A stretch of 64,000 bases of DNA from an uncultured Clostridia bacterium (GTDB lineage Bacteria > CAYTYR01 > UBA6262). The notes beneath the pieces are model-generated. The model was not told where the DNA came from and made no database searches. It saw only the letters and a program-made list of their open reading frames with translations. This document shows, one piece after another, positions 742 through 42,889 of this stretch (positions are counted from its first letter, which is position 1; each line of letters opens with the position of its first letter). The DNA lies in the NCBI GenBank assembly GCA_964441745.1, contig CAYTYR010000002.1:1-64000 (forward strand). Direction: 5' to 3'. A program made the position numbers and the translations under genes.

Positions 742-1377
742 ATGATAACCACAAAAAACTGCGTGATCAGGCTTTCCCGTTATAAGAATGCCTTGAACCG
801 GTTTAAATCTTTGGGGTTTGTCAAAGTTTTTTCTGATAACCTGGCTGATGCCGTTAGCGTTACTTCTTCGCAGGTGCGCAAAGATTTTTCTCTTTTTGGT
901 ATCTCTGGCAATAAAAAGGGCGGCTATAAGGTTGATGAGCTGGTAGAAAAGATCAATATCATCCTGGGAAAGAATGAAATACAACAAGTAGTGCTGGTTG
1001 GCGCCGGCCACATGGGCAAGGCTTTGCTAAAATATAAAGGTTTTGAAAAAGAGGGAATGAAGGTTGTCGCTTGTTTCGATATTGACCCGGTTAAGTTGAA
1101 CCGCGAAGCAGCGACCCCGATTCTGCCGACCAAAGAAATGAAAGATTTCGTGCAAACCCGGCAGATCAAAGTGGGGATCATCGCGGTGCCTGATGCTGCT
1201 GCCCAGGCCGTGCTGGACCAGATGCTGGAGGCGGGGATCAAAGGAGTGCTTAATTTCGCTCCGATCACGCTGCGTGGCGCCGAGGATACGATTGTTAATA
1301 ATGTCAATATAGAACTCGAACTGGAAAATGTGATCTATTATGTTAATGCTTTGGGAAAGGTTCAGCAACCCCAATGA
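742..1377 (+). CDS. rex: Redox-sensing transcriptional repressor Rex
   Basis: RLSRY, QVRKDFSLFG..G.KKGGY winged helix, VGAG Rossmann motif, GVLNFAP. Confidence 0.95.
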   Translation: MITTKNCVIRLSRYKNALNRFKSLGFVKVFSDNLADAVSVTSSQVRKDFSLFGISGNKKGGYKVDELVEKINIILGKNEIQQVVLVGAGHMGKALLKYKGFEKEGMKVVACFDIDPVKLNREAATPILPTKEMKDFVQTRQIKVGIIAVPDAAAQAVLDQMLEAGIKGVLNFAPITLRGAEDTIVNNVNIELELENVIYYVNALGKVQQPQ

Positions 1378-3212
1378 AAACCAGGACTTTAAAATCTAAG
1401 ATCCTTTATTCTTTTCTGAGCGTAATATTGATATTGGGTATATCTATTGCGCTGCTTGGTTTTTATGTCATCAAAAAAGATATCATTGAACGGGCTCAGC
1501 AGCAGGTTAAGAATGATCTGCAGGTAGCGCATATGGTTTATTCCGGGGAATTGGATAATATGAAGCAAGCTTTTTCCGTTATCCGGTATATTACTAACCT
1601 GGAAGAATTGAAATCACGGCTGGGATTAGATTATCTTTATATTATTGATGCCAGCGCCGGCAATAATATCCCCAGTGAAATAGCCAGGCAAGCGGTATTA
1701 GGTAAAAGTATTGGTGGTACCAGGATCATTGAAAAGAGTGAACTGCAGAAATTGGACCCGGTTTTAGGAAATAGATGCCGGATCGAGGTCCGCTTTACTC
1801 CCAAAGCTAAACCCAGCGATAAAAAAGTATTGGAGCAGGCCCTGGCCCTGGAATATGCCCGGCCGTTTTTTAATGACCAGGGGCAGATCACTAAGATAAT
1901 TTATGGGGGTAAGATCATTAATGGCGATCTCACCTTAGTGGATAAGATCAGGGATTATGTCTTTGAAAACAGGTTATACGACGGCAAACCGATCGGCACG
2001 GTCACTATCTTTCTGGATGACACCCGGATCGCTACTAACGTGCTGGATAATGAGGGCCGTCGCGCTATCGGGACGCGTATCTCGGAAAATGTCTATGAAA
2101 ACGTTGTCGGTAAAGGCACCTCTTGGCTGGACCGGGCTTTTGTGGTCACTGACTGGTACCTCACTGCTTATGAGCCGATCAGGAATATTAATGGTAAAAT
2201 AATCGGTATTTTGTACGTAGGTATCCTGGAAAAACCGTTTAATGATATGCGCCGTAATATTATCCTGGTTTTCCTGGCTATCCTCCTGCTGGGAATAGTT
2301 TTAGCGGTGATGCTATCGCTTATTCTCGATGTTACCTTAGCCAAACCATTTACCAGGATGACTGAAGCTACCAGTTCCCTGGCTGCCGGTGACCTGGATC
2401 ATCGTATTACGGCTGTATCGCAGATCACTGAGCTGCACCAGCTGGCCGAATCATTTAATGAGATGGCTAAAAAACTGCAGGAACGCGACGCCAATCTCCA
2501 GGAAACCAATGAAAAATTAACCGCCCTGAATAAAAGCTACCTGGACTTGATCGGCTTTGTTTCTCATGAGCTGAAAGGGATCCTGGGTTCTATCGTGATG
2601 AATATCTATTCGATCAAAGAAGGATATCTGGGCACACTGAACGAAAAACAGCAGAAGGCCATGAATTCAGCGGCCCGGACCCTGGACCATTTTGAGACCA
2701 TGGTCAAAAATTACCTGGATCTTTCCCGGATCGAAAAAGGAGAACTGGAAATAAAACCTACTGCGGCTGACCTGGCTGAGGATATTGTCAAACCGGCGCT
2801 GGGGCACTTTGAAAAGCAGATCCAGGAAAAGCACCTGCAAGTCACAAACCTGGTCTTGCCGGGCATAAAGCTGTCGGCAGACAAGAACCTGCTGCTGATC
2901 GTGTGCGATAACCTGCTGGGTAATGCCTGTAAATACAGCCAGCCTGGCGCCCAGGTCATTATCGAAGGTATTATTGAACAAGATCATATTAAGGTTAGTG
3001 TTTACAATGAAGGAACTCCGATCAAGGAGGAACAGCAGCAGCAATTGTTTAAGAAATTTTCCCGGCTCGAAGGATCAGAAAAAATCAGAGGTACGGGTAT
3101 CGGCCTTTATATTACCCGGCAAATTATTGAAAAACACCAAGGTAAGATCTGGGTGGAAGCCAAAGAGCACGGCAATAGTTTTATATTCATTCTAACTCGT
3201 AGTTTGGGTTAG
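1374..3212 (+). CDS. Membrane sensor histidine kinase (Cache-HAMP-HisKA-HATPase)
   Basis: Two TM helices, Cache-type RIATNV..GRRAIGT, HAMP, H-box SHELK, N-box NLLGNACKY, G-box GTGIGL. ATGA overlap with rex. Confidence 0.92.
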   Translation: MKTRTLKSKILYSFLSVILILGISIALLGFYVIKKDIIERAQQQVKNDLQVAHMVYSGELDNMKQAFSVIRYITNLEELKSRLGLDYLYIIDASAGNNIPSEIARQAVLGKSIGGTRIIEKSELQKLDPVLGNRCRIEVRFTPKAKPSDKKVLEQALALEYARPFFNDQGQITKIIYGGKIINGDLTLVDKIRDYVFENRLYDGKPIGTVTIFLDDTRIATNVLDNEGRRAIGTRISENVYENVVGKGTSWLDRAFVVTDWYLTAYEPIRNINGKIIGILYVGILEKPFNDMRRNIILVFLAILLLGIVLAVMLSLILDVTLAKPFTRMTEATSSLAAGDLDHRITAVSQITELHQLAESFNEMAKKLQERDANLQETNEKLTALNKSYLDLIGFVSHELKGILGSIVMNIYSIKEGYLGTLNEKQQKAMNSAARTLDHFETMVKNYLDLSRIEKGELEIKPTAADLAEDIVKPALGHFEKQIQEKHLQVTNLVLPGIKLSADKNLLLIVCDNLLGNACKYSQPGAQVIIEGIIEQDHIKVSVYNEGTPIKEEQQQQLFKKFSRLEGSEKIRGTGIGLYITRQIIEKHQGKIWVEAKEHGNSFIFILTRSLG

Positions 3213-3357
3213 TTTTTAAGAACCGAGACATAATAGTTCAATATTTTTCTGTATAAAAAAGTGCGAGCATACTCACAGTAGTATGTAAGCAGTTTTTTAA
3301 AAAGAAAAATGAAGAAATTTTATGTCGAATTCAAAAATCTAACACAAATTACGAGTT
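3194..3357. repeat. 164-bp imperfect palindromic element (RPE/MITE-like)
   Basis: Arms of about 80 bp (AACTCGTAGTTTGGGTTAG...GCATACT and AGTATGT...CTAACACAAATTACGAGTT) are reverse-complementary around a 6-nt loop. Confidence 0.75.
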
Positions 3358-3377
3358 CACAAAAAGGAGCGGAGTAA

Positions 3378-6300
3378 ATGAGTAATAGCCCGCAACAGGT
3401 TTTAGCGAAAGCCAGGCAAAATGCCATTCATCAGAACCTCCATAAATGGCTGGCCGCGACCAGGATCAATATCGGCATGTCCACCTGCGAGATTGCCGCC
3501 GGATCAAAAGTGGTTTGGCACGTGATGGAAGAAGAGATCAAGAAACGGAAACTGAAAGACGTTCATCTGGGCCGTAAGGGTTGTGTCGGCCGGTGTCATT
3601 TGGAACCGACAGTGGAAGTGTACCAGGCTGGCAAGGCGCCGTTCAAATATGAAAATGTCGACGCCGCCAAAGCCCGGAAGATCATTATCGACCACCTGGT
3701 CAAGAAAAATGTGCCCTGTCCCAGCAAGAAGACCGGCAAAAAACTGGTCAGTAAAGATACTTTGACTGATAAATCCCATTTTATTTTCAGTGATATAGAT
3801 TATTTTAATAAACAAAAGCGGATGGCCCTGCGCAATTGCGGGGTGATCGATCCGGAAAATATAGATGATTATCTCGCGATCAGGGGCTATGAAGCCTTAG
3901 CCAAGGTCGTCGGTGAATATACTCCGGATCGGGTGATTGACGAAATGATCAAATCCGGCTTGCGCGGCCGGGGCGGCGGGGGGTTCCCGACCGGTACCAA
4001 ATGGCGTTTTGTGGCGGAACAGAAAGCTGGCCAGAAATATGTAATTTGTAATGCTGATGAAGGAGACCCCGGGGCTTTCATGGACCGCAGCGTGATCGAG
4101 GGTGATCCTTTTTCCGTATTGGAAGCGATGGCCATTGGCGGTTATGCTGTCGGCGCCGACCAGGGTATTGTCTATATCCGCGCTGAGTATCCTTTGGCTG
4201 TGGAGCGGTTGAAGATCGCTATTAAGCAAGCCAAGGAATTGAATCTGCTAGGCAAAAATATTTTAGGTACGAATTTTTCTTTTGAGATAGATATCATTCT
4301 TGGAGCCGGAGCTTTTGTTTGCGGCGAAGAGACAGCCCTGATCAACTCGATTCAGGGTGAACGGGGTATGCCTAAGGTAAAACCGCCGTTCCCGTCAACC
4401 AGCGGTTTATGGGGCCAGCCTACCCTGATCAATAATGTAGAAACCTGGGCTAATGTCCCGGTTATTATTCTTGACGGGTATGCTCATTTTGCCACGATCG
4501 GTACCGAAAAAAGCAAGGGCACCAAAGTATTTGCCCTGGCCGGCAAGGTGAAAAATACCGGCCTGGTGGAAGTCCCGATGGGCACTACTCTGGGTGAGGT
4601 GATCTTTGATATCGGCGGCGGTATTAAAGAAGGGCGTAAATTTAAAACCGCCCAGACCGGCGGTCCGTCCGGCGGCTGCCTGCCGGTGCAATACCTGAAT
4701 ACACCGATCGATTATGATTCTCTGGCCAGCGCCGGGTCCATTATGGGTTCTGGCGGCTTGATCGTCATGGACGAGAAAGATTGCATGGTAGACGTAGCTA
4801 AATTTTTCCTGGAATTCACCCAGGATGAATCGTGCGGGAAATGTACTCCCTGCCGGGAAGGTACCAAGCGGATGCTGGAGATCCTGAACCGCATTACCAG
4901 CGGCCAGGGAGAGCTTAGCGATATAGATAAACTGGAAAGCCTGGGAGAGACCATCAAAAAGACAGCTCTCTGCGGTTTAGGGCAGACTGCTCCTAATCCA
5001 GTGCTGTCCACCCTGCGTTTTTTCCGCGCCGAATATGAAGCCCATATCAAGGAGAGAAAATGCCCGTCAGCTGTTTGCGCTGACTTATTTGTCTCTCCCT
5101 GCCAGCATACTTGTCCGGCGCATATTGACATCCCTGGTTTTATTGGTTTGATCAAGGAAGGAAAGTTTAAGGAGAGTGCGGAAATGATCTTACAACGCAA
5201 TCCCTTCCCTTCTATTTGCGGCCGGGTCTGTCATCACCCGTGCGAATCAAATTGCCGGCGCGGGAAAATAGAAGAACCGGTAGCGATCATGCTGTTAAAA
5301 CGTTTTGCGGCTGATTATACAGTCAGTGATGATGTAAAAATTGAGAAATATACCGGTAAACAGTTAAAAGAAAAAGTGGCCATTATCGGCAGCGGCCCGG
5401 CTGGACTGTCCTGCGCTTACCAATTGGCTAAACGCGGCTACCAGGTCACAGTATTTGAAGCAGACCGGAAAACTGGCGGGATGCTGACCCTGGGTATTCC
5501 CGAGTACCGGTTACCCAAAGAAGTGGTTAAACGGGAGATCAAGCGGATCACTGACCTGGGAGTAAAGATCAAAACTAATACCGCTCTCGGCAAAGATCTT
5601 TCCTTGCAGCAACTTAAGGACCAGGGCTTTAAAGCAGTGTACCTCGCTATCGGCGCCTGGAAAGAAGCAGCTTTAGGAATTCCCGGCACTGAACTGCTGG
5701 GGTTCCTGGGATCCTTGAATTTCCTGAAAGATTATAACTCCGAGCGGATCAAGAAAATGCACGGCGCCTATGCCTTAATGAAAGGTAAAAGCAAGATCGT
5801 CTTTACCGGCAAGAAAGTCGCGGTCATCGGCGGCGGGAACGCGGCCATGGACGTAGCCAGGACGTGCTTGCGGTTAGGGGCGGACGAAGTGCATATCATT
5901 TACCGCCGGACCAAAGACGCCATGCCGGCTATCCCGGAAGAAGTGGAAGAGGCGGGAAAAGAAGGCGTTAAATTACATTTCCTGTTAATACCGACTGCGA
6001 TCAAGGGTAAGGATAACCAGGTTGTCTCCCTGGAATGCGCCTATACCCGTCCGGGTGAATTTGACCTGAGCGGCAGGCGCAAACCATTAGCCACTGAAGA
6101 GGTTTTCAACCTGCCGGTGGATGTAGTGATTAGCGCGATCGGCGGCAAACCGGATATTCCGGAAACAGTGAAAAAAGAATTAGGAGCAAAAGATAGCGGA
6201 GCGCTGAATGTGGACCGGGACACCTTGGCCACTAATGTACCGGGGATCTTTGCCGGCGGTGACCTGGTGAGCGGCGGAGCCACGGTCATTGAAGCGATTG

Positions 6301-6581
6301 CTGACGGAGAGAAGGCGGCGATCTCCATTGACCGTTCTTTTAAAGGTGAAGACCTGCATCAGAACAGGTATGTCATCAAGGGAGAACGGAGAAAAGTTGA
6401 TTATTTCGATCCTAGTGCCGAGATCAAGGAGAAACACCGGCCGCAGCAAGCCAAGGTTAGCATGGTCAAGCGGCTGCAGGTCTTTACCGAGGTTGAATTA
6501 GGGTATTCTAAAAAACAAGCTCTCGAAGAGGCAGATCGTTGTTTGCGCTGCGACCGTCGGGAAGAGGAGTGTAAGCCATGA
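3378..6581 (+). CDS. hydB: Hydrogenase diaphorase subunit: HndB-like 2Fe-2S + NuoF/HydB + GltD-like FAD/NADP(H) oxidoreductase fusion
   Basis: GMSTC..GCVGRC N-domain; GRGGGGFP, NADEGDPGAFMD, CGEET, GGPSG, CGKCTPCREG; then PCQHTCP, CGRVCHHPCESNC, GSGPAG, GGGNAAMD..YRRT, GGD. Confidence 0.88.
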   Translation: MSNSPQQVLAKARQNAIHQNLHKWLAATRINIGMSTCEIAAGSKVVWHVMEEEIKKRKLKDVHLGRKGCVGRCHLEPTVEVYQAGKAPFKYENVDAAKARKIIIDHLVKKNVPCPSKKTGKKLVSKDTLTDKSHFIFSDIDYFNKQKRMALRNCGVIDPENIDDYLAIRGYEALAKVVGEYTPDRVIDEMIKSGLRGRGGGGFPTGTKWRFVAEQKAGQKYVICNADEGDPGAFMDRSVIEGDPFSVLEAMAIGGYAVGADQGIVYIRAEYPLAVERLKIAIKQAKELNLLGKNILGTNFSFEIDIILGAGAFVCGEETALINSIQGERGMPKVKPPFPSTSGLWGQPTLINNVETWANVPVIILDGYAHFATIGTEKSKGTKVFALAGKVKNTGLVEVPMGTTLGEVIFDIGGGIKEGRKFKTAQTGGPSGGCLPVQYLNTPIDYDSLASAGSIMGSGGLIVMDEKDCMVDVAKFFLEFTQDESCGKCTPCREGTKRMLEILNRITSGQGELSDIDKLESLGETIKKTALCGLGQTAPNPVLSTLRFFRAEYEAHIKERKCPSAVCADLFVSPCQHTCPAHIDIPGFIGLIKEGKFKESAEMILQRNPFPSICGRVCHHPCESNCRRGKIEEPVAIMLLKRFAADYTVSDDVKIEKYTGKQLKEKVAIIGSGPAGLSCAYQLAKRGYQVTVFEADRKTGGMLTLGIPEYRLPKEVVKREIKRITDLGVKIKTNTALGKDLSLQQLKDQGFKAVYLAIGAWKEAALGIPGTELLGFLGSLNFLKDYNSERIKKMHGAYALMKGKSKIVFTGKKVAVIGGGNAAMDVARTCLRLGADEVHIIYRRTKDAMPAIPEEVEEAGKEGVKLHFLLIPTAIKGKDNQVVSLECAYTRPGEFDLSGRRKPLATEEVFNLPVDVVISAIGGKPDIPETVKKELGAKDSGALNVDRDTLATNVPGIFAGGDLVSGGATVIEAIADGEKAAISIDRSFKGEDLHQNRYVIKGERRKVDYFDPSAEIKEKHRPQQAKVSMVKRLQVFTEVELGYSKKQALEEADRCLRCDRREEECKP

Positions 6582-8356
6582 CCAAACCAATAACCCTGAC
6601 TATAGATGGGCAAAAAGTAACTGCGGCGGCGGGAACGACTATCATGCAGGCGGCCGATAGTGTCGGTTTGCATATCCCGCGGTTATGTTATCATAAAAAG
6701 TTATCCAGTATCGGCGCCTGCCGTATCTGTGTGGTAGAAGTGGCGGGGCTGAAGAATTTTGCTCCTTCGTGCTGTACCGCGGTCACCGAAGGGATGGTTG
6801 TTAAAACAAATTCCCAGGCGGTGCGCCAGGCGCGCCGGGATATTGTGGAATTGATCCTGGATAATCATCCGCGTAACTGCCAGATCTGTGAACGCAACAA
6901 TAATTGCGATCTGCAGGAAATGGCTAATACTTTGGGCATCCGGGAATTTATCTATGAGGGTGAACGCAAGCGTTATGCTGTTGATGTTTCTGCCGGGATC
7001 ACCCGTGATCCGGAAAAATGTATCACCTGCGGGAAATGCGTGCGGGTCTGCTCGGAATTACAGGGTGTGAACGCTTTGTCGTATGCCTATCGCGGTTTCC
7101 GGACCACGGTCTTGCCGGCCTTTAATATGCCGATCAAGGATAGTGTCTGTATCAATTGCGGGCAATGTGCTTTATTCTGTCCGACGGCAGCGATTACGGA
7201 AACCGATGCTACCGCCGAAGTATGGCGCAATCTCAATGATCCGGCTAAGACCGTGATCGTCCAGATCGCCCCGGCAGTGAGAGTGGCGTTAGGCGAAGGA
7301 TTTGGCCTGCCTCCGGGAGAAGATAAAACCTATGAAGCGGTAACTGCTTTGCGCCTGATGGGATTCAAAGTGGTGTTTGATACGCAATTCTCCGCTGATC
7401 TTACCATTATGGAAGAGGGGCATGAACTTATTAATCGTTTGAAGAATAACGGGAAATTGCCCATGATCACTTCCTGCAGTCCCGGCTGGATCAAGTTTTG
7501 CGAACATTTTCATCCCGAGTTCCTGAACAACCTGTCTACGTGCAAATCGCCCCAGCAGATGATGGGCGCCCTTATCAAAACCTATTATGCCCAGAAGATG
7601 AAGATCGATCCGGCCAGTATCTATAGCGTCAGTATCATGCCTTGTACCGCCAAGAAGTTTGAAGCCAGTCGTCCGGAAATGAATGCCAGCGGGTACCAGG
7701 ATGTGGATGCCGTGCTCACGACCCGTGAACTGGTAAAAATGATCAAGCAGGCCGGGATCAAATTTCATGAGCTTAAAGGTTCTGAATTTGATAATCCCAT
7801 GGGTGAATCGACCGGCGCAGCCACGATCTTTGGCGTCAGCGGCGGCGTGATGGAAGCAGCCTTGCGGACAGCGTATGAAGTGATCACTGGTCAGGCTTTA
7901 CCGGCTATTGATTTTAAAGCAGTCCGCGGCTTTGACGGTATCAAAGAAGCTGAAGTAGATATTGCCGGGACTTTAGTTAAGGTAGCAGTTATTTATGGTA
8001 TGGCCAACGTCCATAAAGTTTTCACCGAGATAGAACAAGGAAAACGCCACTACCATTTTATCGAAGTAATGACGTGTCCGGGTGGCTGTATGGGCGGCGG
8101 CGGTCAGCCTTACCTGCCGAACCAGGCCGAAGCGCTGGATAAGGCCTGGTATGAAAAACGGGCCCAGGGATTATATAAAATAGACGAACTTAAGAAGATC
8201 CGTAAATCCCATGAGAATCCGCAGATCAAGCAAATTTACCAGGAATTCCTGAAACAGCCGTTAGGAGAATTGTCGCATCATTTGCTGCATACCCATTATC
8301 ACCGCCGGTCGCCTAAAGGAATAGCTTCGAAAGTAAAAGAAACAGTCAGTATATGA
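6578..8356 (+). CDS. hydA: [FeFe]-hydrogenase catalytic subunit (group A, M3 architecture)
   Basis: 2Fe-2S, His-ligated and two 4Fe-4S motifs; H-cluster motifs TSCSPGW, MPCTAKKFE, EVMTCPGGCMGGGGQ. Confidence 0.95.
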   Translation: MTKPITLTIDGQKVTAAAGTTIMQAADSVGLHIPRLCYHKKLSSIGACRICVVEVAGLKNFAPSCCTAVTEGMVVKTNSQAVRQARRDIVELILDNHPRNCQICERNNNCDLQEMANTLGIREFIYEGERKRYAVDVSAGITRDPEKCITCGKCVRVCSELQGVNALSYAYRGFRTTVLPAFNMPIKDSVCINCGQCALFCPTAAITETDATAEVWRNLNDPAKTVIVQIAPAVRVALGEGFGLPPGEDKTYEAVTALRLMGFKVVFDTQFSADLTIMEEGHELINRLKNNGKLPMITSCSPGWIKFCEHFHPEFLNNLSTCKSPQQMMGALIKTYYAQKMKIDPASIYSVSIMPCTAKKFEASRPEMNASGYQDVDAVLTTRELVKMIKQAGIKFHELKGSEFDNPMGESTGAATIFGVSGGVMEAALRTAYEVITGQALPAIDFKAVRGFDGIKEAEVDIAGTLVKVAVIYGMANVHKVFTEIEQGKRHYHFIEVMTCPGGCMGGGGQPYLPNQAEALDKAWYEKRAQGLYKIDELKKIRKSHENPQIKQIYQEFLKQPLGELSHHLLHTHYHRRSPKGIASKVKETVSI

Positions 8357-8364
8357 TAGGATAG

Positions 8365-8404
8365 AGACTGATGACCTATAAGTAATCTGTGTAATCAGTT
8401 TCTA
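8365..8404. repeat. AATCTGTGTAATC-family intergenic hairpin
   Basis: TAGAGACTGAT...TAATCTGTGTAATCAGTTTCTA; the motif recurs at about 30847, 36874 (reverse) and 57853. Confidence 0.6.
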
Positions 8405-8422
8405 AATAACATGGAGGAATCT

Positions 8423-8992
8423 GTGACGCAGGACAAAACCAAAACAATATCCACAGAAACGCAGGAAAAACTGAAAAAAGTTGGCGAGTTTCTAAAAACC
8501 AGTCCGCAGCTGAAGGACCAGCAAGGCCAGCTGATGGGGGCTCTGCATTATGTCCAGACCCTGTTCGGCTACCTGCCCCAATCAGCGATGGAATATATTT
8601 CTGAAAAACTTAATATCCCGACTGCCCATATTTATGGCATGGCGACGTTCTATAATTATTTTTCCCTCCAGCCGAAAGCCAAATACCAGATCTATCTCTG
8701 CAAAGGCACTGCCTGCTATGTCGCCGGTGGCGCCAGGATCCAGGAACGGCTGCGGGAAGAACTGAAGATCGGTCTCGGGGAAACCACTCCTGATGGCATG
8801 TTCGGGGTGAATATCACCCGCTGCCTGGGCTGTTGCGGGCTTTCACCGGTCATGCAGGTAAATGAAGATATCTACGTGCGCATGGTTCCGGAAAAGATAC
8901 CGTCGATTTTGGAAAAATATCGCCGCCAGGATAAAAAATATGCTAAAGTGAAAGAAGCCGGGATCGGGGCGTTTGAGCAACCCGGGAAATAA
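8423..8992 (+). CDS. hydC: NuoE/HydC-like 2Fe-2S hydrogenase subunit
   Basis: CKGTAC..CLGCC motifs, GYLP, ATFY. GTG start follows GGAGG (the ORF track starts at 8411). Confidence 0.9.
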   Translation: MTQDKTKTISTETQEKLKKVGEFLKTSPQLKDQQGQLMGALHYVQTLFGYLPQSAMEYISEKLNIPTAHIYGMATFYNYFSLQPKAKYQIYLCKGTACYVAGGARIQERLREELKIGLGETTPDGMFGVNITRCLGCCGLSPVMQVNEDIYVRMVPEKIPSILEKYRRQDKKYAKVKEAGIGAFEQPGK

Positions 8993-8998
8993 GAGAGT

Positions 8999-9397
8999 AT
9001 GATCAAAAAAATACTGATCATCGATGATGATACTGATTTTAACGAAGCCTGCCGCAATATGCTGGAAGCGGTGGACTATGAGGTGGGCGTGGAAAATAAA
9101 CACGAGCACGCTTACCAGACCATTGTCGAATTCAAGCCTGACCTGATCCTGCTGGATGTATTAATGGATAACAAGCTGGCCGGCTTTGAGATCGCCGAAA
9201 CCCTGGCCAAGGATAAAAAGTTCAGGGAAGTGGCCATTATCCTGCTGACCGGGTATTTTATGCGGACCGGTTTGCGCGATCTCCAGAATGAAATGATGAC
9301 GAAATGGGATAACATAAAATATGTACTGGATAAACCGGTAAAACCAGCTACCCTGCTGGAAACGATAAAGAAGGTAATAATATATGAAATACATTGA
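8999..9397 (+). CDS. Single-domain response regulator (receiver only)
   Basis: ILIIDDD, DLILLDVLM, LTG, KP; no output domain. Confidence 0.9.
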   Translation: MIKKILIIDDDTDFNEACRNMLEAVDYEVGVENKHEHAYQTIVEFKPDLILLDVLMDNKLAGFEIAETLAKDKKFREVAIILLTGYFMRTGLRDLQNEMMTKWDNIKYVLDKPVKPATLLETIKKVIIYEIH

Positions 9398-10775
9398 TGA
9401 ACCAAAAATAGAAGCCCTTTTAAAAGCAGCCACTAATGTGAAGCCGGCTGAATTGGACCGCATCCTGGATAAAAGTAAATCTTTGCAAAGACTATCCTTA
9501 AGCGAAACAGCGGCTTTGCTGGCGGTAGAAGACCCGCAGTATCTTAAGAAAATATTTGCCGCAGCGTCTTTTGTCAAGGAGCATATTTACGGCAGCCGGA
9601 TAGTATTATTCGCGCCACTATATATCAGTAATATCTGTGCCAACTGCTGCGCTTATTGCGCGTTTAATGCCAAAAATAAAAAGATCGCGCGTAAAGCCCT
9701 GACCGTGGATGAGATCAAGGAACAGGTTACGTTATTATTAAAACACGGGCATAAGCGCATCTTGCTGGTAGCCGGGGAAGCGGCGCCAGCCGGCAAGACT
9801 AATATTGAATATTATGTCGAATCGATCAAAGCGGTTTATGCGGTTAGTGTCGGGAAGCACCGGATCAAGAGAGTGAACATTAATTGTGCGCCTTTGACCG
9901 TGGATGAATTTAAACAATTAAAAGCCGCCGGTATCGGTACGTTCCAGATATTCCAGGAAACATATCATGAAAAGAGTTATCACCAGGTGCATATCAGCGG
10001 GCCAAAGAGTGATCCGGATAACCGTATTGACGCTGTGGACCGCGCTTTTACCGCCGGGATTGATGATGTTGGGATCGGGGTCCTGTATGGTATTTATGAT
10101 TACCGGTTCGAGATCCTGGCTATGCTTATGCATATCGAGCACCTGGAAGAAAAATTCAAAGTCGGTCCCCACACTATTTCCGTACCCAGGATCGAGCCGG
10201 CCTTAGGATCTGCTTTCAGCGAAAATGTTCCCCATCGCGTTTCAGATGATGAATTCAAGAAACTGGTTGCTGTCTTGCGGTTGTCAGTGCCGTATACCGG
10301 AATGATCCTCACGACCCGGGAAACGCCGGAGATGCGTGATGAATTATTTAATTTAGGCATATCCCAGATCAGCGCTGCTTCCCGGACCTCTCCCGGCGGC
10401 TATGAAGAAACCCAGGGGAAACTGCCTAAAGATTCGCAATTTATTTTAAATGATAATCGTTCATTGGATGAAGTTATCGGCTCATTGATCAGTAAAAAAT
10501 TTATTCCCAGTTTTTGCGCCGCCTGCTATCGCTCGTCCCGGACCGGGGAAGCTTTCATGAACCTGGCTAAGCCTGGCTTGATCAAAGGAAAATGCAGCGT
10601 TAATGCTTTGATCACCCTGAAAGAATATCTCGACGATTTTGCCTCACCGGAAGTCAAGAAAGCCGGATATGCTTTGATCGAGGAATACAGTCAACAGCTG
10701 GATGAGAAAACCCGGGCCGAGCTGGCTAAATATTTCGCCGATATTAATCAGGGTATTAGGGATGAGTACGTCTAA
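9384..10775 (+). CDS. hydG: [FeFe]-hydrogenase maturase HydG
   Basis: CANCCAYC radical SAM motif, GPHTISVPR, C-terminal Cx2Cx22C. Confidence 0.95.
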   Translation: MKYIDEPKIEALLKAATNVKPAELDRILDKSKSLQRLSLSETAALLAVEDPQYLKKIFAAASFVKEHIYGSRIVLFAPLYISNICANCCAYCAFNAKNKKIARKALTVDEIKEQVTLLLKHGHKRILLVAGEAAPAGKTNIEYYVESIKAVYAVSVGKHRIKRVNINCAPLTVDEFKQLKAAGIGTFQIFQETYHEKSYHQVHISGPKSDPDNRIDAVDRAFTAGIDDVGIGVLYGIYDYRFEILAMLMHIEHLEEKFKVGPHTISVPRIEPALGSAFSENVPHRVSDDEFKKLVAVLRLSVPYTGMILTTRETPEMRDELFNLGISQISAASRTSPGGYEETQGKLPKDSQFILNDNRSLDEVIGSLISKKFIPSFCAACYRSSRTGEAFMNLAKPGLIKGKCSVNALITLKEYLDDFASPEVKKAGYALIEEYSQQLDEKTRAELAKYFADINQGIRDEYV

Positions 10776-11868
10776 GATCAAGGATATTTTAAAACGGGTA
10801 TATAACGCTCCAAGGCCGGCAGTGGCAGACCTGGAATTCCTGCTGTCATTAACCGCAGAGCCTGAAACTAGGATCCTGTACGCGTCTGCCGACCAGGTGC
10901 GGAAAAAGTTTGCCGGTAACGGCATCCTGTTGCGCGGGATCATTGAGTTTGATAATAATTGCCGGAACACCTGCCTCTATTGCGGACTGAACCGGAAAAA
11001 TAAGCAGATCAAAAGATATCGCCTGACCCAGTCCCAGGTGCTCGGCAGTGTTGCCCGAATGGCGGCACAAGGGATCAAGACCGTGGTCCTGCAATCCGGT
11101 GAAGCCAGTGACCTGGATGCAGCCTGGCTGGCGGCAGTGGTCAGGGAAATTAAACAGCGCTATCACCTGGCAGTCACTCTTTCAGTCGGGGAACAAGACT
11201 TAAGAACCTATCGCCTCTGGCGGACGGCTGGGGCTGACCGGTACTTATTGAAAATAGAAACCACGGACCGGGGAATTTACCGGTCACTGCATCCGGAAAT
11301 GGATTATGACCACCGGGTAAATTGCCTGCGCAATTTAAAAAAGCTGGGCTACCAGGTTGGATCTGGCATTATCATTGGGCTGCGGGGACAAACCGTGCGT
11401 AGTATTGCCCGGGATATCCTGTTTTTTAAAAAGCGGCAATTTGATATGATCGGTATCGGGCCTTTTATTCCCCATCACCAGACCAAATTGGACGGGGATA
11501 AAAAAGGTGAGGCGCTCTTGACCTTGAAGGCCCTGGCGGTTACCAGGATCGTGACCCGCTATAGCCACTTACCAGCGACCACAGCCTTGGGCAGTTTGGA
11601 AAAAGATTACCGGATCATTGGCTTGCAGGCCGGCGCTAATGTCCTGATGCCGAACTTTACGCCTCAACCTTACAAGCAGTATTATGAACTGTATCCGGGC
11701 AAAAGATGCGTGAATGAAGCAGTAGGAGCTGGCGTGCCCTGCCTGGCGGGATTGGCGGGCACTATTAAAAGGCGCCTGGATTTTTCTTACGGACATAGTT
11801 TGCTGAAAAGACAAGAATTAAATTTGAAAAAGGAGGAAGAATATGGCGAAAAAAGCGCTGATCATTGA
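10762..11868 (+). CDS. hydE: [FeFe]-hydrogenase maturase HydE
   Basis: CRNTCLYC, VLQSGE, RYLLKIET, PATTAL, YELYPGK. ATG at 10762 overlaps hydG. Confidence 0.92.
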   Translation: MSTSKIKDILKRVYNAPRPAVADLEFLLSLTAEPETRILYASADQVRKKFAGNGILLRGIIEFDNNCRNTCLYCGLNRKNKQIKRYRLTQSQVLGSVARMAAQGIKTVVLQSGEASDLDAAWLAAVVREIKQRYHLAVTLSVGEQDLRTYRLWRTAGADRYLLKIETTDRGIYRSLHPEMDYDHRVNCLRNLKKLGYQVGSGIIIGLRGQTVRSIARDILFFKKRQFDMIGIGPFIPHHQTKLDGDKKGEALLTLKALAVTRIVTRYSHLPATTALGSLEKDYRIIGLQAGANVLMPNFTPQPYKQYYELYPGKRCVNEAVGAGVPCLAGLAGTIKRRLDFSYGHSLLKRQELNLKKEEEYGEKSADH

Positions 11869-12226
11869 TGACGACGCAGAATACCGCGAAGCCACCACAA
11901 CGTTGCTGGAAGCTAAAGGCTATGAGGTCATTACCGCCGAGAATGGGGAACAGGGATTTGAAAAAGCGAAAAGTTTGGTCCCGGATATTATCCTCTTAGA
12001 TGTCATGATGACCCATAAGTCGGAAGGTTTTGATCTCGCGCGGAACCTGAAGCAGGAAAGTAAAACCAAAAATGTCCCGGTGATCATTGTTTCCGGCGTG
12101 CGGAAAGAAATGAACCTGCCGTTTGGTTTTGAACCGGACCAGGATTGGCTCCCGGTGAAGACCATACTGGAAAAACCGATCAAACCGGAGGTATTGCTAA
12201 AAGCGATCGAAGAGAATCTTAAATAG
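11843..12226 (+). CDS. Single-domain response regulator (receiver only)
   Basis: LIIDDD, DIILLDVMM, VSG, EKP; no output domain. Confidence 0.9.
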   Translation: MAKKALIIDDDAEYREATTTLLEAKGYEVITAENGEQGFEKAKSLVPDIILLDVMMTHKSEGFDLARNLKQESKTKNVPVIIVSGVRKEMNLPFGFEPDQDWLPVKTILEKPIKPEVLLKAIEENLK

Positions 12227-12248
12227 TATCTTGATGATGGAGTGCGCA

Positions 12249-12722
12249 ATGACTGAACCTAAGTTAAGCGAAGACATTAAAAAAGTAGTAGAGAAATGGC
12301 GCAACAAGAAAGGCAGCCTGGTCATGATCCTGCATGAGATCCAGAATGCCTATGGCTATGTGCCCAGGGAAACTTCCCTGGAGCTATCCAAATATTTGGA
12401 TGTGCCGCTGGCCCAGATCTATGAAGTGATCACGTTCTATAATTATTTCAAACTGGAAAAACCAGGAGCACACCGCATTTCGGTCTGCATGGGCACAGCC
12501 TGTTATCTGAAAGGATCTCCGGTTATCCTGCAGGAGTTGAAAGAACTACTGGATGTGGAAGAAGGGCATAACACCAAGGATGGTTTGTTTGCTTTGGATG
12601 TGGTCCGGTGCCTGGGGTGCTGCGGGTTGGCGCCGGTCATGATGATCGATGGCAAAGTATATGGCAAAGTAAAAAAAGAAGAGATCATGAACATTTTGTC
12701 TGAATATGGGAAAGAGGAATAA
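12249..12722 (+). CDS. hndA: HndA/NuoE-like 2Fe-2S subunit
   Basis: CMGTAC..CLGCC; start chosen after GGAG. Confidence 0.9.
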   Translation: MTEPKLSEDIKKVVEKWRNKKGSLVMILHEIQNAYGYVPRETSLELSKYLDVPLAQIYEVITFYNYFKLEKPGAHRISVCMGTACYLKGSPVILQELKELLDVEEGHNTKDGLFALDVVRCLGCCGLAPVMMIDGKVYGKVKKEEIMNILSEYGKEE

Positions 12723-12725
12723 CTT

Positions 12726-13094
12726 ATGACTAAATTAACCAAGGCGAGTTTTGACCAGCATAAAGCCGCGATCCCGGCCACAAATAAGAATTGGATCAAA
12801 GTCGGTATGAGTACATGCGGGATCGCGGCCGGCGCGGAAGAAGTATTTAAAACCTTGCAGGAAGAAGCAAAAAAGAAAAACTTGTCTATTGAGATCAAAA
12901 AATGCGGTTGCCTCGGTATGTGCTATGCTGAACCATTGGTCGAAGTTCATGTCGAAGGAGTCCCGCAGGTGATCTACGGTAAAGTGAATAAGGACATAGC
13001 GATCAAAATATTGGAAAAACATGTCGGCACAAAAATGCTGGTAAATGACTATATTTTTGATTTGGCGTTAACGATGAAAGAAGTAGGAAAATGA
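12726..13094 (+). CDS. hndB: HndB-like thioredoxin-fold 2Fe-2S subunit
   Basis: VGMSTCGIAAGA..GCLGMCYAEP. Confidence 0.85.
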   Translation: MTKLTKASFDQHKAAIPATNKNWIKVGMSTCGIAAGAEEVFKTLQEEAKKKNLSIEIKKCGCLGMCYAEPLVEVHVEGVPQVIYGKVNKDIAIKILEKHVGTKMLVNDYIFDLALTMKEVGK

Positions 13095-14836
13095 TGGAGA
13101 AAAAGATTGTATTACTTAAAGATACAAGTATCGGCGCGGCCGATAAAACCAAAGAATATTACAGCCTGATCCTGAACCTGCTGCGTGATCGTAATTTGCA
13201 GGATTCTGTGCAAGTGGTCAGGGTGGCTGATATCGGTATTTACGACCAGGGATTAGTGCTTAAGATCCTGCCTGACCAGGTGACCTACGGGAAGGTACAG
13301 GAGGCTGATCTCGCTCAGATCATAACTGAAACGATCCAGGGGAATAAGGTGCTGGACCGGTTAGCTATCAAGCTGACCGCGAAACAACTGCGTCTGGTCT
13401 TGCGTAACTGCGGCCAGATCGATCCGGAAAGTTTCGATGATTATTTAGCTGTTGATGGGTATGCCGCCCTGAAAAAAGTGATCACCGAATATAAGCCGGA
13501 ACAGGTGATCGAACAACTGAAAGCCAGTGGTTTGCGCGGCCGCGGCGGGGCTGGTTTCCCGACCTGGATGAAATGGAATTTTGCCCGGCAGATCAAGGCC
13601 GGACAGAAATATATTGTCTGTAACGGTGATGAAGGTGATCCCGGCGCCTATATGGACCGCAGCGTCCTGGAAGGTGATCCGCACTCGGTGATCGAAGGGA
13701 TGATGATCGGGGCTTATGCCATCGGGGCCAGCCAGGGATATTTCTATATCCGGGCTGAATATCCGCTGGCTGTGGAACGGATCCAAAAAGCCATTGCCCA
13801 ATCTTATGAATATGGCTTGCTGGGTAAAAATATATTAGGTACGGAATTTTCTTTTGACGTCGAGATTCGGCTGGGAGCCGGAGCTTTTGTCTGTGGTGAA
13901 GAAACAGCTTTATTGGCGTCCATTGAGGGGAAACGCGGCACGCCGCAGCCACGGCCACCGTACCCTTCGATCAAGGGATTATGGGGCCAGCCCACGGTCA
14001 TTAATAATGTCGAGACCTTGGCTAACATACCAGTGGTTTTACTAAAAGGCGGAGCCAGCTTCAGTAAAGTCGGGACGGAAAAGTCTAAAGGGACTAAAGT
14101 ATTTGCCGTGACTGGCAAGATCAAGAATTCTGGTTTGGTGGAAGTCCCCATGGGCACTACTATCCGGGAAATTGTTTATGATATCGGCGGGGGTATGCTA
14201 TCCGCTAAAGGGCTTAAGGCGGTGCAGACTGGCGGACCGTCAGGAGGGGTTATCCCGAAAGAATTTCTGGATGAACCGGTTGATTATGAAAATCTCCAGA
14301 AACTCGGCTCGATCATGGGTTCCGGCGGGATGATCGTCATGGATGAGGATGATTGCCTGGTGGACATCGCCAAGTTCTACCTGAAATTCTGCGTTGAGGA
14401 ATCATGCGGTAAATGCGCGCCCTGCCGGATTGGTGGTTTCCAGATGTTAAGCTTATTGGAAAATATCACCAATGGCAAGGGTACCAGCGGTGACCTGGCG
14501 AAGATGAAAAGAATAGCCCAAGCGATGCAAAAAGCCTCTTTATGCGGACTCGGACAAACCGCCTCTAATCCGGTGCTGTCTACCATAAAATATTTTGCCG
14601 CTGAATATAAAGAGCATATTGAAAACAAGAAATGCGTGGCTGGTAAATGCCGTTACCTGTTGAATTATCAGATCATTCCCGATAAATGCAAAAAATGCGG
14701 TTTGTGCCTTACCAATTGCGTGTTCGGCGCCATTTCCGGCAACCGGGAACAGGGATATGTGCTGGATCAGGCCAAATGCACCAAATGCGGACGCTGCTAT
14801 GAAGTATGCAAATTTAAAGCTATTGGCAAAGGATAA
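13091..14836 (+). CDS. hndC: HndC/HydB NADH-FMN-binding subunit
   Basis: GRGGAGFP, DEGDPGAYMD, GGPSG, CGKCAPCRIG and two C-terminal 4Fe-4S motifs. Confidence 0.92.
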   Translation: MMEKKIVLLKDTSIGAADKTKEYYSLILNLLRDRNLQDSVQVVRVADIGIYDQGLVLKILPDQVTYGKVQEADLAQIITETIQGNKVLDRLAIKLTAKQLRLVLRNCGQIDPESFDDYLAVDGYAALKKVITEYKPEQVIEQLKASGLRGRGGAGFPTWMKWNFARQIKAGQKYIVCNGDEGDPGAYMDRSVLEGDPHSVIEGMMIGAYAIGASQGYFYIRAEYPLAVERIQKAIAQSYEYGLLGKNILGTEFSFDVEIRLGAGAFVCGEETALLASIEGKRGTPQPRPPYPSIKGLWGQPTVINNVETLANIPVVLLKGGASFSKVGTEKSKGTKVFAVTGKIKNSGLVEVPMGTTIREIVYDIGGGMLSAKGLKAVQTGGPSGGVIPKEFLDEPVDYENLQKLGSIMGSGGMIVMDEDDCLVDIAKFYLKFCVEESCGKCAPCRIGGFQMLSLLENITNGKGTSGDLAKMKRIAQAMQKASLCGLGQTASNPVLSTIKYFAAEYKEHIENKKCVAGKCRYLLNYQIIPDKCKKCGLCLTNCVFGAISGNREQGYVLDQAKCTKCGRCYEVCKFKAIGKG

Positions 14837-14841
14837 AATAT

Positions 14842-16593
14842 ATGAAAAAAGTTGTGAAGGCAAAGATCAACGGAATATTGATCAGGGCGGAAGAAGGGAC
14901 CACGATCCTGGATGCCGCCAGGAAAGTCCAGGTAAAGATTCCTACGCTCTGCAAACATCCTGACCTGAAGCCTTCCGCCAGCTGCGGCTTGTGCATCGTC
15001 AAAATTAAAGGTGCCAATAAGATGCTGCGGGCTTGTTGTACGCCGCTGGATGAGGGGATGGAGATCATCACTCATGATCCGGAGATCGTGGATATCCGCC
15101 GGACGGTGTTGGAGTTGATCCTGTCCAATCATCCGAATGACTGCTTGAAATGTGACCGGAATAATGACTGTGAACTGCAAAAACTGGTTGCTGATTTTGG
15201 CATCAGGCAAAGCCCTTTTACCCAGGTTTTGCGTGACCTGCCGGAAGATAATTCTACTAAAGCCATAGAACTTGATCCGAAGAAATGCATTCTTTGCGGG
15301 CGCTGTGTGGATGTCTGCCAGAACCGGCAGGATGTCTGGGCCTTGTCATTTTTAGAGCGGGGTATGCAGACCAGGATTTCCCCGGCGGGTGATATTTTAT
15401 TAAATGAATCTCCCTGCGTTAAGTGCGGGCAGTGTTCGGCCCATTGTCCCACGGGAGCGATCGTGGAGCAGGATGATATCGGCAAAGTCTGGGAAGCGCT
15501 GCTTGATCCGGACAAGTATTGCGTGGTGCAGATCGCTCCAGCCGTCCGGGCTTCGATCGGTGAGGCTTTTGGCTTGACCGGCAAAAATATGACTAAACAG
15601 TTATATGCTTTATTGCGCAGATTGGGATTTAAAGCTGTTTTCGATACTAATTTTGCGGCTGATGTCACCATTATGGAAGAGGCGAGTGAGTTTGAAGAAA
15701 GGCTGATCAAAGGCACTAAGCCCTTGCCGTTGATCACCTCCTGCTGTCCGGCCTGGGTTGATTTTATGGAAAAATTTCACAGCGACATGATCGAGCATTT
15801 TTCTTCGTGCAAATCGCCGCATGAGATCCTGGGCGTTTTGTCAAAAACATATTATGCCCAGAAGAATAGCCTTGATCCGGCGAAGATCACCATGGTTTCC
15901 ATCATGCCGTGTACCGCCAAGAAATATGAAATTACCCGCAGTAATGAAATGTCAGCCTCCGGGTACCAGGATATCGACATTGTCTTATCCACCCGGGAAT
16001 TGGCCAGGATGATCAAGCAGGCGGGTATTGATTTCCTGAGCCTGCCGGGTGAAGAAGCTGACAGCATGCTCGGTGAATATGCCGGGGCCGGTGTTATTTT
16101 TGGCGCGACCGGCGGCGTCATGGAAGCGGCTTTGCGGACCGCCTCTTATTTTGTCACTGGCAGTGACCTGGGCAAAGTTGAATTTGAAGATGTCCGCGGT
16201 TTGCAAGGCATCAAGGAAACAGAAATAGAGATCGCCGGCAAGAAGATCAGGATCGCTATCGCCCATGGTTTAGGCAATGTTGAGATCGTGCTGGACAAGG
16301 TCCGGGAAGCCAAGAAGAACAACCAGGAACTGCCGTACCATTTTATCGAGGTAATGGCCTGTCCCGGTGGTTGTGTGGGTGGCGGCGGCCAGCCGTATAT
16401 GGTCACTGATGAATTACGCTTGAAACGGGCCAAAGTCCTGTACCAGGATGATACGGACAAGCAGGTCCGCTGCTCGCACCAGAATCCTTATGTCAAACGG
16501 TTGTATACGGAATTCCTGGAAAAGCCGCTTAGCGCGAAATCAGAAAAACTATTGCATACCAAATATAACTCCCGGCCGATTTATAAACGGTAG
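14842..16593 (+). CDS. hndD: [FeFe]-hydrogenase catalytic subunit HndD/HydA
   Basis: TSCCPAW, MPCTAKKYE, EVMACPGGCVGGGGQ and accessory FeS motifs. Confidence 0.95.
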   Translation: MKKVVKAKINGILIRAEEGTTILDAARKVQVKIPTLCKHPDLKPSASCGLCIVKIKGANKMLRACCTPLDEGMEIITHDPEIVDIRRTVLELILSNHPNDCLKCDRNNDCELQKLVADFGIRQSPFTQVLRDLPEDNSTKAIELDPKKCILCGRCVDVCQNRQDVWALSFLERGMQTRISPAGDILLNESPCVKCGQCSAHCPTGAIVEQDDIGKVWEALLDPDKYCVVQIAPAVRASIGEAFGLTGKNMTKQLYALLRRLGFKAVFDTNFAADVTIMEEASEFEERLIKGTKPLPLITSCCPAWVDFMEKFHSDMIEHFSSCKSPHEILGVLSKTYYAQKNSLDPAKITMVSIMPCTAKKYEITRSNEMSASGYQDIDIVLSTRELARMIKQAGIDFLSLPGEEADSMLGEYAGAGVIFGATGGVMEAALRTASYFVTGSDLGKVEFEDVRGLQGIKETEIEIAGKKIRIAIAHGLGNVEIVLDKVREAKKNNQELPYHFIEVMACPGGCVGGGGQPYMVTDELRLKRAKVLYQDDTDKQVRCSHQNPYVKRLYTEFLEKPLSAKSEKLLHTKYNSRPIYKR

Positions 16594-42150: not shown

Positions 42151-42152
42151 TC

Positions 42153-42740: not shown

Positions 42741-42760
42741 AGAAAAAACAGTGATAAGGT

Positions 42761-42875: not shown

Positions 42876-42889
42876 TTTGGAGTAAAAAA

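Follow-up and report, generated by a model that had tools for sequence, protein, structure and literature searches.

The trimeric [FeFe]-hydrogenases HydABC of Acetobacterium woodii (7q4v/8a5e), Thermoanaerobacter kivui (8a6t) and Thermotoga maritima (7p5h) are of the Bfu type. In the solved Bfu enzymes, as described in PMC11829005 and PMC10482914, electrons are delivered to a B1-FMN-C1 site where NAD+ is reduced at the flavin mononucleotide (FMN), and a low-potential route leads from the mobile C1 cluster through B3 and B4 to ferredoxin. Here we examine a 64,000-nucleotide stretch of DNA from an uncultured Clostridia bacterium (contig CAYTYR010000002.1, positions 1 to 64,000; hereafter the window), which carries a three-gene hydrogenase operon, hydB*-hydA-hydC. 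The HydA, HydB and HydC proteins of the canonical enzymes and of the window are homologous throughout, but the HydB-type subunit encoded by hydB* has a 500-residue NADPH/FAD (flavin adenine dinucleotide) module in place of the ferredoxin-type B3/B4 domain.

Two further groups of enzymes contain related modules. The StnABC/NfnABC complexes of Sporomusa ovata (8oh5), C. saccharolyticus (9bov) and T. sibiricus (9n5u) share with the window's enzyme the BC core and the same kind of NADPH module. In these complexes, the module resides in an A subunit that is NuoG-like and lacks an H-cluster, and there it is the mid-potential electron donor; B3/B4 remain on the B subunit, which reduces ferredoxin. 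By contrast, in the window it is the B subunit that carries the module, placed at the low-potential exit, and a genuine hydrogenase forms the A subunit. The NfnAB enzymes of T. maritima (4ylf) and P. furiosus (5jca) contain a homologous subunit with FAD, an NADPH site and two [4Fe-4S] clusters (E 5e-99). However, NfnB is unpermuted and has a Glu-ligated cluster, a bifurcating FAD and an NfnA partner, whereas the hydB* module is permuted, with a Lys at the ligand position, and the operon contains no NfnA-like gene.

The architecture is widespread and was already catalogued from genomes in 2018 and 2024 (PMC6163223, PMC11406978), which disposes of the novelty implied by a first-pass annotation of this DNA; what the window adds is an unreported B-A-C gene order. 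The 2018 report contains an annotation remark on the second trimeric hydrogenase of Vallitalea guaymasensis L81, in whose HydB a GltD domain stands in for the two-[4Fe-4S] domain (PMC6163223); we liken this enzyme to that of the window by description only. Zheng and Huang (2024, mSystems, PMC11406978) defined the same architecture, from genomes only, as “sub-type I BfuABC” in group A3. In their description, a DPD_II domain (2x[4Fe-4S]) and a C-terminal FAD/NAD(P) domain replace B3/B4 in BfuB, bfuA and bfuC lie alongside and the sub-type is present in several phyla; a second bifurcating FAD was postulated and biochemical validation was stated to be lacking. In the portions of that paper considered here, a “BAC” order is mentioned for sub-type III only, and one supplementary file has no match to “Firestonebacteria”, “Omnitrophota”, “sub-type I” or “DPD_II”. 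The fusion is unmentioned in PMC9304861 (in which the terms “GltD” and “fusion” do not occur), PMC7311640, PMC5736913 and PMC12918512, and PMC10327494 deals with Stn-like enzymes only. The full-text literature, a coverage that stops short of subscription-only papers, yielded neither an assay nor a structure for an enzyme of this architecture, in agreement with the initial statement that no characterised pairing of a NuoF-GltD fusion with an H-cluster subunit was known.

Results

A HydB-type subunit that retains the Bfu core but not B3/B4

The hydB* gene (3378-6581, plus strand) encodes a protein of 1067 residues and has an AGGAG 8-12 nucleotides ahead of its ATG. It is followed on the same strand by hydA (6578-8356) and hydC (8411-8992), and all three open reading frames (ORFs) lie where they were first annotated. 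The hydB* stop and the hydA start overlap by 4 nucleotides (ATGA), with the purine-rich GGAAGAGGAG directly upstream of the hydA start. Base composition is even over the three genes, and GC content ranges from 0.44 to 0.52 across 3001-9000.

Pfam domains in the hydB* product are, in order, Complex1_51K (residues 192-361, E 5e-45), SLBB (residues 385-433), NADH_4Fe-4S (residues 472-556, E 4e-36), Fer4_20 (residues 567-650, E 1e-27) and Pyr_redox_2 (residues 666-977, E 9e-32), every one of them well clear of chance level. Residues 36-571 align with residues 15-542 of A. woodii HydB (7q4v_B, E 3e-212), and StnB, NiFe-HydB and NfnB of the Bfu enzymes are nearly as good matches to the same region. 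As a whole protein the fusion scores below the NCBIfam cut-offs (nuoF_fam, 482.6 against 558.65; PRK12771, 479.9 against 516), an annotation gap in that no NCBIfam model recognizes it above cut-off.

The initial description of this protein as a HndB-NuoF-GltD triple fusion proved overstated: HydB subunits normally have the HndB-like domain at their N-terminus, and the protein is a canonical HydB with one extra module. This thioredoxin-like domain (“HndB-like”, B5-site; 3465-3698, residues ~30-107) has no Pfam match at an E value of 0.001. With the stand-alone HndB-like ORF at 12726-13094 it shares 41% identity (E 2e-17), and it aligns with the N-terminal domains of HydB and StnB. That it is the ordinary HydB N-terminal domain follows from the alignment with 7q4v_B, which begins at residue 15 of that chain.

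The NuoF core (3825-5090, residues 150-571, from Pfam) comprises the FMN/NADH site, the SLBB domain and the four-helix bundle. The motifs first quoted for the protein are all present in the translation: DEGDPGAFMD, KPPFP and TGGPSGG, and GSGPAG and GGGNAAMD...IIYRR. Predicted ligands of the B1 [4Fe-4S] cluster are C486, C489, C492 and C532, and those of the Zn (“B2”) hinge are C469, H556, C562 and C567, which correspond in a gap-free alignment to C438, H525, C531 and C536 of 7t2r_B; the B2 site of the solved Bfu enzymes is described as holding Zn (PMC11829005). The HydB-type alignment ends at ...HIKERKCPSAVCADLF, the stretch that holds the hinge His and two of its Cys residues.

A second, paralogous HydB in the window (13091-14836) is 62% identical to hydB* residues 145-571. 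Past this aligned core, the paralogue continues into a 2x[4Fe-4S] Fer4 domain, whereas the fusion continues into Fer4_20. The Fer4-type dicluster (B3/B4) domain is absent from hydB*, where the HydB alignment stops at residue 571. Both Pfam and the alignment with the paralogue thus bear out the proposal that the ferredoxin-type clusters were replaced by a GltD/NfnB-like FAD/NADPH module. By the B3/B4 criterion, stated in PMC9304861 as part of an “absolutely conserved BfuBC core”, the window's enzyme is not a canonical Bfu enzyme. A new point is that the predicted Zn hinge is kept immediately ahead of the NADPH module.

The hydA gene encodes a 592-residue catalytic subunit of an M3-type [FeFe]-hydrogenase, with Pfam matches to Fer2_4, NADH-G_4Fe-4S_3, Fer4, Fe_hyd_lg_C (E 3e-102) and Fe_hyd_SSU. 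All three H-cluster motifs (TSCSPGW, MPCTAKKFE and EVMTCPGGCMGGGGQP) are intact, and the protein scores 880.6 bits with NCBIfam NF040763 (“NADH-dependent [FeFe] hydrogenase, group A6”; cut-off 765). The 193-residue hydC product is a NuoE-like, thioredoxin-like subunit with the C1 [2Fe-2S] site (2Fe-2S_thioredx, E 7e-48). Judged from their sequences, hydB*, hydA and hydC specify the components of a soluble, three-subunit [FeFe]-hydrogenase of HydABC/Bfu type, in which the whole Bfu core is kept: a thioredoxin-like domain at the N-terminus, the FMN/NADH site, B1, the Zn hinge and, on HydC, C1. We consider it very probable that the three genes encode a hydrogenase with this anatomy. The 4-nucleotide overlap and the conserved neighbourhood support the claimed pairing of the fusion gene with a true H-cluster subunit gene.

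HydDB group A2 (“glutamate synthase-linked”) was considered for this HydA and rejected. The A2 rule, as given in PMC5037454, is that the protein directly downstream of HydA has a GltD-type domain and no NuoF; in the window the downstream protein is NuoE-like, and the GltD-bearing protein lies upstream and has NuoF. Taken literally, the rule would label the window's HydA “A1”. Because only the protein downstream of HydA is considered, HydDB rules would miss the NuoF-GltD subunit of a B-A-C operon, and annotation by downstream genes in the HydDB style would mislabel such an operon.

The NADPH/FAD module resembles that of Stn and NfnABC

The module begins with a DPD_II/Fer4_20 domain (5091-5327, Pfam) that carries two predicted [4Fe-4S] clusters and starts 8 residues past hinge residue C567, the point at which the B3/B4 domain of HydB starts. 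It continues with the FAD and NADPH Rossmann domains (5373-6308, residues 666-977; Pyr_redox_2), which hold GSGPAG and GGGNAAMD...YRR, and ends with a C-terminal segment (...FTEVELGY...EADRCLRC; 6453-6557, residues 1026-1060). The best solved match to residues 573-1060 is C. saccharolyticus NfnA (9bov_A, residues 102-568, E 9e-110), followed by T. sibiricus NfnA, T. maritima NfnB (5e-99), P. furiosus NfnI-L and StnC. The fusion has its YRRT motif in common with the aligned NADPH-binding chains 9bov_A, 9n5u_A, 4ylf_B, 5jca_L and 8oh5_C.

Residues 1026-1060 align as a second stretch with residues 11-43 of NfnB (4ylf_B) and 13-46 of 5jca_L. Likewise, positions 3-31 of the Fer4_20 profile match 6477-6563 and positions 23-110 match 5073-5327. 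Since the C-terminal tail corresponds to the N-terminus of an ordinary GltD or NfnB, the module is circularly permuted as in StnC and NfnA. The ligands tell a similar story. K641 aligns with K170 of StnC and C. saccharolyticus NfnA, where this Lys is an unusual ligand to the cluster nearest the FAD, and C579, C618, C622 and K641 align with Cys108, Cys147, Cys151 and Lys170, the A7 cluster ligands of C. saccharolyticus NfnA as numbered in PMC11829005. By elimination, the putative ligands of the distal [4Fe-4S] cluster are C575, C626, C1055 and C1058, the conserved cysteines that the proximal cluster does not use. Lys occupies the K641 position in 28/28 fusions and 4/4 StnC-like proteins, and Glu in 5/5 NfnB-like proteins and in the GltD of the window's genome. 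A tree built from 38 modules, with that GltD as its root, unites the fusion modules with the StnC-like ones in a clade that has a Shimodaira-Hasegawa-like approximate likelihood ratio test (SH-aLRT) support of 98 and leaves the 5 NfnB-like proteins outside.

These comparisons indicate that the module is of the Stn/NfnABC kind, with a Lys-ligated cluster and a permuted order, and not of the NfnAB kind, an assignment that is new. The comparison with Nfn in the first-pass annotation holds insofar as the module is homologous to GltD and NfnB, but it needs to be made more precise as to the kind. The distinction matters for the flavin, as the Lys-type module in Stn and C. saccharolyticus Nfn is described as having a non-bifurcating FAD that feeds an iron-sulfur chain (PMC10482914, PMC11829005), the former source concluding in its section 9 that the Stn-type FAD does not bifurcate. 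A module of this kind therefore argues against a second bifurcating FAD. In this respect, the comparison differs from the sub-type I proposal, favouring a non-bifurcating Stn-type FAD over a second bifurcating one.

The fusion is real and its cluster ligands are conserved

PF01512 and PF07992 occur together in 119 of the 120 best database homologues, which include proteins from isolates and are 52-95% identical to the window's protein; the lone exception is a 676-residue partial protein. Named carriers are Thermanaeromonas toyohensis, Moorella sp. Hama-1, Zhaonella formicivorans, Anoxybacter fermentans and Candidatus Caldatribacterium, and a further one is Enterocloster citroniae DSM 19261 (L065). 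An ORF of >1000 residues that spans the junction was found in 9/41 sampled genomes, that is, in the window's own, in 3/5 others of the same genus, in 1 of the same family and in 4 of other families. With a 141-residue junction query, 65 representatives of 50%-identity clusters were matched at E <= 1e-30 among 1.84 billion, and all 65 listed matches run across the junction position. The possibility that the fusion is an assembly chimera is ruled out by the 119/120 homologues of the same architecture and by the 41-genome sample. Raw sequencing data were not used as independent support: no RNA run is listed with this stretch; in run X1, possibly the source of this DNA, one contig spans 3300-8860 with no differences; among the listed pieces of run X2, from the same study as X1, none bridges 5030-5485; and run X4, from another study, gave a 199-nucleotide contig over 4919-5117 with 15 differences.

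Ligand positions were scored in 118 full-length sequences (>= 950 residues), namely the query and 117 of the 120 listed matches, the 3 shorter ones being excluded. The four B1 cysteines and the four hinge residues are present in 118/118. So are module residues C575, C579, C618, C622, C626, C1055 and C1058, as well as K641 and R711, and C614 is present in 116/118. The FAD motif residues G671, G673 and P674 and the NADPH motif residues Y842, R843 and R844 are likewise found in 118/118; across GSGPAG as a whole each position is retained in 104-118 of the 118, aside from the variable second position (S in 87). As far as motifs can tell, then, these numbers speak against a module that binds neither FAD nor NADPH. 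In the N-terminal domain, C69 and C73 are found in 117/118 homologues and C37 in 50/118 only. C97, C102, C138 and C142 of HydC are invariant in the 15/15 HydC proteins encoded next to fusion genes. With cluster ligands and NADPH motif at 116-118/118, FAD motif at 104-118 and HydC at 15/15, the whole electron wire is under selection.

Gene order and partners of the fusion in other genomes

We compared 80 genome loci, leaving unclassified those fusion loci with a NuoF match of <380 residues. At 31/80 the NuoF core is of the fusion type and its match nearly full. Seven of the 31 (L002-L008; loci of metagenome-assembled genomes, MAGs, labelled Firestonebacteria, Omnitrophota or “Planctomycetales” or left unclassified) show the B-A-C order with an H-cluster HydA, which is present in 7/7 B-A-C loci that extend downstream, and HydC follows in L003, L006 and L007, where the contig extends far enough. 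Five others (L010, L011, L015, L021 and L065) are ordered C-B-A with HydA, and overall an H-cluster HydA lies <=4.5 kb away on the same strand at 12/31. At 17/31 loci the partner matches the NuoG-like N-terminus of HydA only, and at 2/31 no A subunit is found in the available DNA. At every locus examined the fusion is accompanied by a NuoG-like and/or NuoE-like subunit and is never alone.

The window's fusion falls inside the B-A-C clade, which is separate in the NuoF-core tree (SH-like support 100). The HydA tree groups the five HydAs next to B-A-C fusions in one clade (SH-aLRT 99) and places those next to C-B-A fusions in two clades, with 2 and 3 members (SH-aLRT 97 and 99). Because this branching matches that of the HydB tree, the operons were inherited as units. 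Three changes of the fusion label are required on the NuoF-core tree, and a single clade was not rejected by the approximately unbiased test (p 0.334; 28/78 near-duplicate or long-branch rows were removed beforehand and the set contained no Zheng and Huang sequences).

The nearest canonical NuoF core, weakly supported (SH-like 84 in FastTree; 26 in IQ-TREE) and not used as evidence, belongs to L046, a canonical B-A-C operon of a Bacillota MAG. Positions 4858-12152 of this locus encode Rex, a small ORF, canonical HydB, HydA, HydC and a PAS-containing sensory hydrogenase (HydS), a layout that resembles the window's but with the ordinary ferredoxin-type HydB C-terminus. In contrast to L046, the window has a sensor kinase between Rex and hydB*, and no HydS after the operon.

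The partner is of another type in some of the NuoG-like-only loci. In both of the 17 that were Pfam-scanned, L013 (2810-9024, a Chloroflexota MAG) and L018 (1979-8288, a Thermodesulfovibrionales MAG), the NuoF-GltD fusion stands with HydC and a molybdopterin subunit of the formate-dehydrogenase type, the FdhA-like gene of L018 being split into two ORFs (5595-6653 and 6681-8288). The surroundings of both loci are Wood-Ljungdahl-type, with an MTHFR C-terminal domain, a pterin-binding protein and a CooC-like protein. This observation, also new, suggests that the same NuoF-GltD diaphorase serves FdhA-type partners in other phyla. Loci of two other genomes, L091 (2479-4419, plus strand) and L092 (2029-3939, minus strand), encode proteins of 636-646 residues with NADH_4Fe-4S, Fer4_20 and Pyr_redox_2 but no FMN domain; these come after NuoC- and NuoD-like genes, and the next gene in L091 is NuoG/molybdopterin-like. 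They look like complex-I-type operons in which NuoF was swapped for a [4Fe-4S]::GltD-like fusion, possibly for NADPH input.

A possible mechanism and its alternatives

The best reading of this anatomy, to which we give not quite an even chance, is that of a ferredoxin-free enzyme that would use the flavin and iron-sulfur core of the Bfu type to couple H2 to both NAD(H) and NADP(H). Its more specific form, held a little more tentatively, is a ferredoxin-independent bifurcation/confurcation between H2, NAD(H) and NADP(H), with the NADPH/NADP+ couple in ferredoxin's role. Electrons from H2 would pass along the HydA clusters to the B1-FMN-C1 site, where one pair would exit as hydride to NAD+ at the FMN and the other would exit via C1, reach FAD through the module's two clusters and pass on to NADP+. 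The net reaction without ferredoxin would be 2 H2 + NAD+ + NADP+ <-> NADH + NADPH + 2 H+, in which NADP(H) would substitute for ferredoxin as the lower-potential partner and the module FAD would be a simple two-electron/one-electron converter, with no second bifurcation site. In vivo the reaction might run either way, with a fermenter disposing of NADH and NADPH as H2, or with H2 at low pressure supplying NADPH.

The energetics of such a replacement are plausible. Potentials given in PMC9304861 are about -280 mV for NADH, about -380 mV for NADPH and -414 mV for H2 at 1 bar. By our arithmetic, the H2 couple reaches -330 mV, the mean of NADH and NADPH, at ~150 Pa, and it reaches the potential of NADH alone at ~3 Pa. 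Because the mean matches ~150 Pa, H2 would lie between the two nucleotide couples at environmental H2 pressure, which is the condition for bifurcation.

Several points weigh against this reading. The coupling is something that we infer from the parts, as was the case for the “hydrogenase-transhydrogenase hybrid” of the first-pass annotation, and the same parts would be compatible with two independent nucleotide sites. HydB proteins without B3/B4, those of S. wolfei and S. aciditrophicus, are reported as non-bifurcating (PMC7311640; PMC11406978), and loss of B3/B4 may simply abolish bifurcation in the fusion enzyme too. Electron transfer from C1 to a module cluster is a putative step, and a 500-residue module is far bulkier than the 60-residue mobile domain, such that the Bfu conformational gate might differ. 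The predicted specificity for NADPH over NADH rests on a motif common to NADPH-using relatives. Finally, the need for the reaction is not obvious because the genome has canonical NfnAB, HydABC and Rnf.

The main rival is a non-bifurcating NADH- and NADPH-dependent hydrogenase resembling those of S. wolfei and S. aciditrophicus, in which the module would be an independent entry for NADPH without energetic coupling. We regard it as unlikely but as a serious contender, given the non-bifurcating HydB proteins just cited and the conclusion of PMC10482914 that the Stn-type FAD is a plain electron-input flavin. Two considerations count against it. An ungated link from NADPH to NAD+ would, we infer, short-circuit the NADPH/NADH disequilibrium of the cell and dissipate it, and H2 production from NADH as sole donor would, by the arithmetic above, be feasible only at pressures of less than a few Pa. 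A four-substrate enzyme, a true hydrogenase-Nfn hybrid using H2, NAD, NADP and still ferredoxin, is improbable. The organism does make and use reduced ferredoxin (Rnf, 38735-43687; NfnAB elsewhere in the genome), and the thioredoxin-like domain that hydB* keeps is described in PMC11829005 as part of the ferredoxin-binding “tripod” of C. saccharolyticus NfnABC, but the B3/B4 domain that hydB* lacks is the proposed site of ferredoxin reduction in all solved Bfu enzymes, and neither the ORF list nor Pfam reveals an extra ferredoxin-like domain or gene in the operon.

Still less probable are two bifurcation centres, an NfnB-like bifurcating flavin in the module beside the FMN-iron-sulfur site, as postulated by Zheng and Huang (PMC11406978). 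The homology of the module with NfnB, whose FAD bifurcates, would fit such a scheme. However, the module groups with the StnC/NfnA type and not with NfnB, its cluster ligand is Lys instead of Glu (28/28 fusions in the tree set and 118/118 homologues), a Stn FAD of this kind was concluded to be non-bifurcating (PMC10482914), and the operon offers one iron-sulfur exit route only and no NfnA-like second flavin partner. That the fusion acts independently of the adjacent HydA, as a stand-alone NAD(P)H oxidoreductase or in the service of a glutamate synthase (compare HydDB A2), seems very improbable. It is a portable module, since it is found with non-hydrogenase partners at 17/31 loci, of the formate-dehydrogenase type in the two that were Pfam-scanned, and the genome encodes GltB and GltD. 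Yet GltB has its own adjoining GltD on a different contig, hydB* is translationally coupled to hydA, the HydA and HydB trees are congruent, and HydA and HydC are conserved alongside the fusion in this lineage (HydA at all seven B-A-C loci reaching downstream), with a NuoG-like and/or NuoE-like neighbour at each locus examined.

Neighbouring genes and the hydrogenase complement of the genome

The genes described here between 742 and 19230 are on the plus strand. A radical-SAM/BATS ORF (19-627) is cut by the window's start (1-627). A Rex-like regulator (742-1377) and an sCache/HAMP histidine kinase (1374-3212), both assigned with Pfam and overlapping at the end of the former and the start of the latter, precede hydB*, and a terminator-like hairpin lies upstream of it at 3192-3212. 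The Rex operator consensus is TTGTGAAN6TTCACAA. With <=3 mismatches allowed, it occurs 2 times in the window against 3.73 expected and 0 times in the promoter region. With no Rex-box-like site above chance, Rex control of the operon is no more than a candidate. A sigma-70-like promoter was looked for on the plus strand between 3213 and 3377 and none was found.

Downstream of hydC are a single-domain response regulator (8999-9397, Pfam), HydG (9384-10775), HydE (10702-11868) and another single-domain response regulator (11843-12226, Pfam); HydF follows at 17983-19230, and all three maturases score above the cut-offs of NCBIfam equivalog models. In their longest ORFs HydG and HydE share 74 nucleotides, so that the real start of HydE is probably further downstream. 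The response regulators amid hydrogenase and maturase genes, together with the upstream kinase, suggest two-component control of the region.

A canonical hydrogenase operon (12231-16593) sits 3 kb downstream of the fusion operon. It consists of HydC (12231-12722), the stand-alone HndB-like [2Fe-2S] protein (12726-13094), the HydB with the usual C-terminal 2x[4Fe-4S] domain (13091-14836) and HydA (14842-16593). The two HydA paralogues are 48% identical. No Fe_hyd_lg_C match other than these two occurs in the genome (2.07 Mb and 98% complete), in which a sensory (HydS-type) hydrogenase is by the same count absent. The Rnf operon of the window, RnfCDGEAB, is complete (38735-43687), and an ApbE-like flavin transferase comes after it at 47014-48069. 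Other contigs of the genome carry canonical NfnAB next to acetate kinase and the adjoining GltB/GltD pair; GltD-family paralogues thus number three with the hydB* module, which is not the cell's sole link to NADPH.

Implications

The prior cataloguing of the architecture from genomes lowers the value of this one instance. If the proposed reaction is correct, it would represent a new reaction class for hydrogenases and would mean that the Bfu bifurcation core can be re-plumbed from ferredoxin to a pyridine nucleotide. The same reaction would extend to formate dehydrogenases where the fusion pairs with FdhA-type subunits, as at the Chloroflexota and Thermodesulfovibrionales loci. For the anaerobes that carry the hydrogenase, the enzyme would then link H2 directly to NADPH when the H2 pressure is low, or let NADPH and NADH be discharged as H2.

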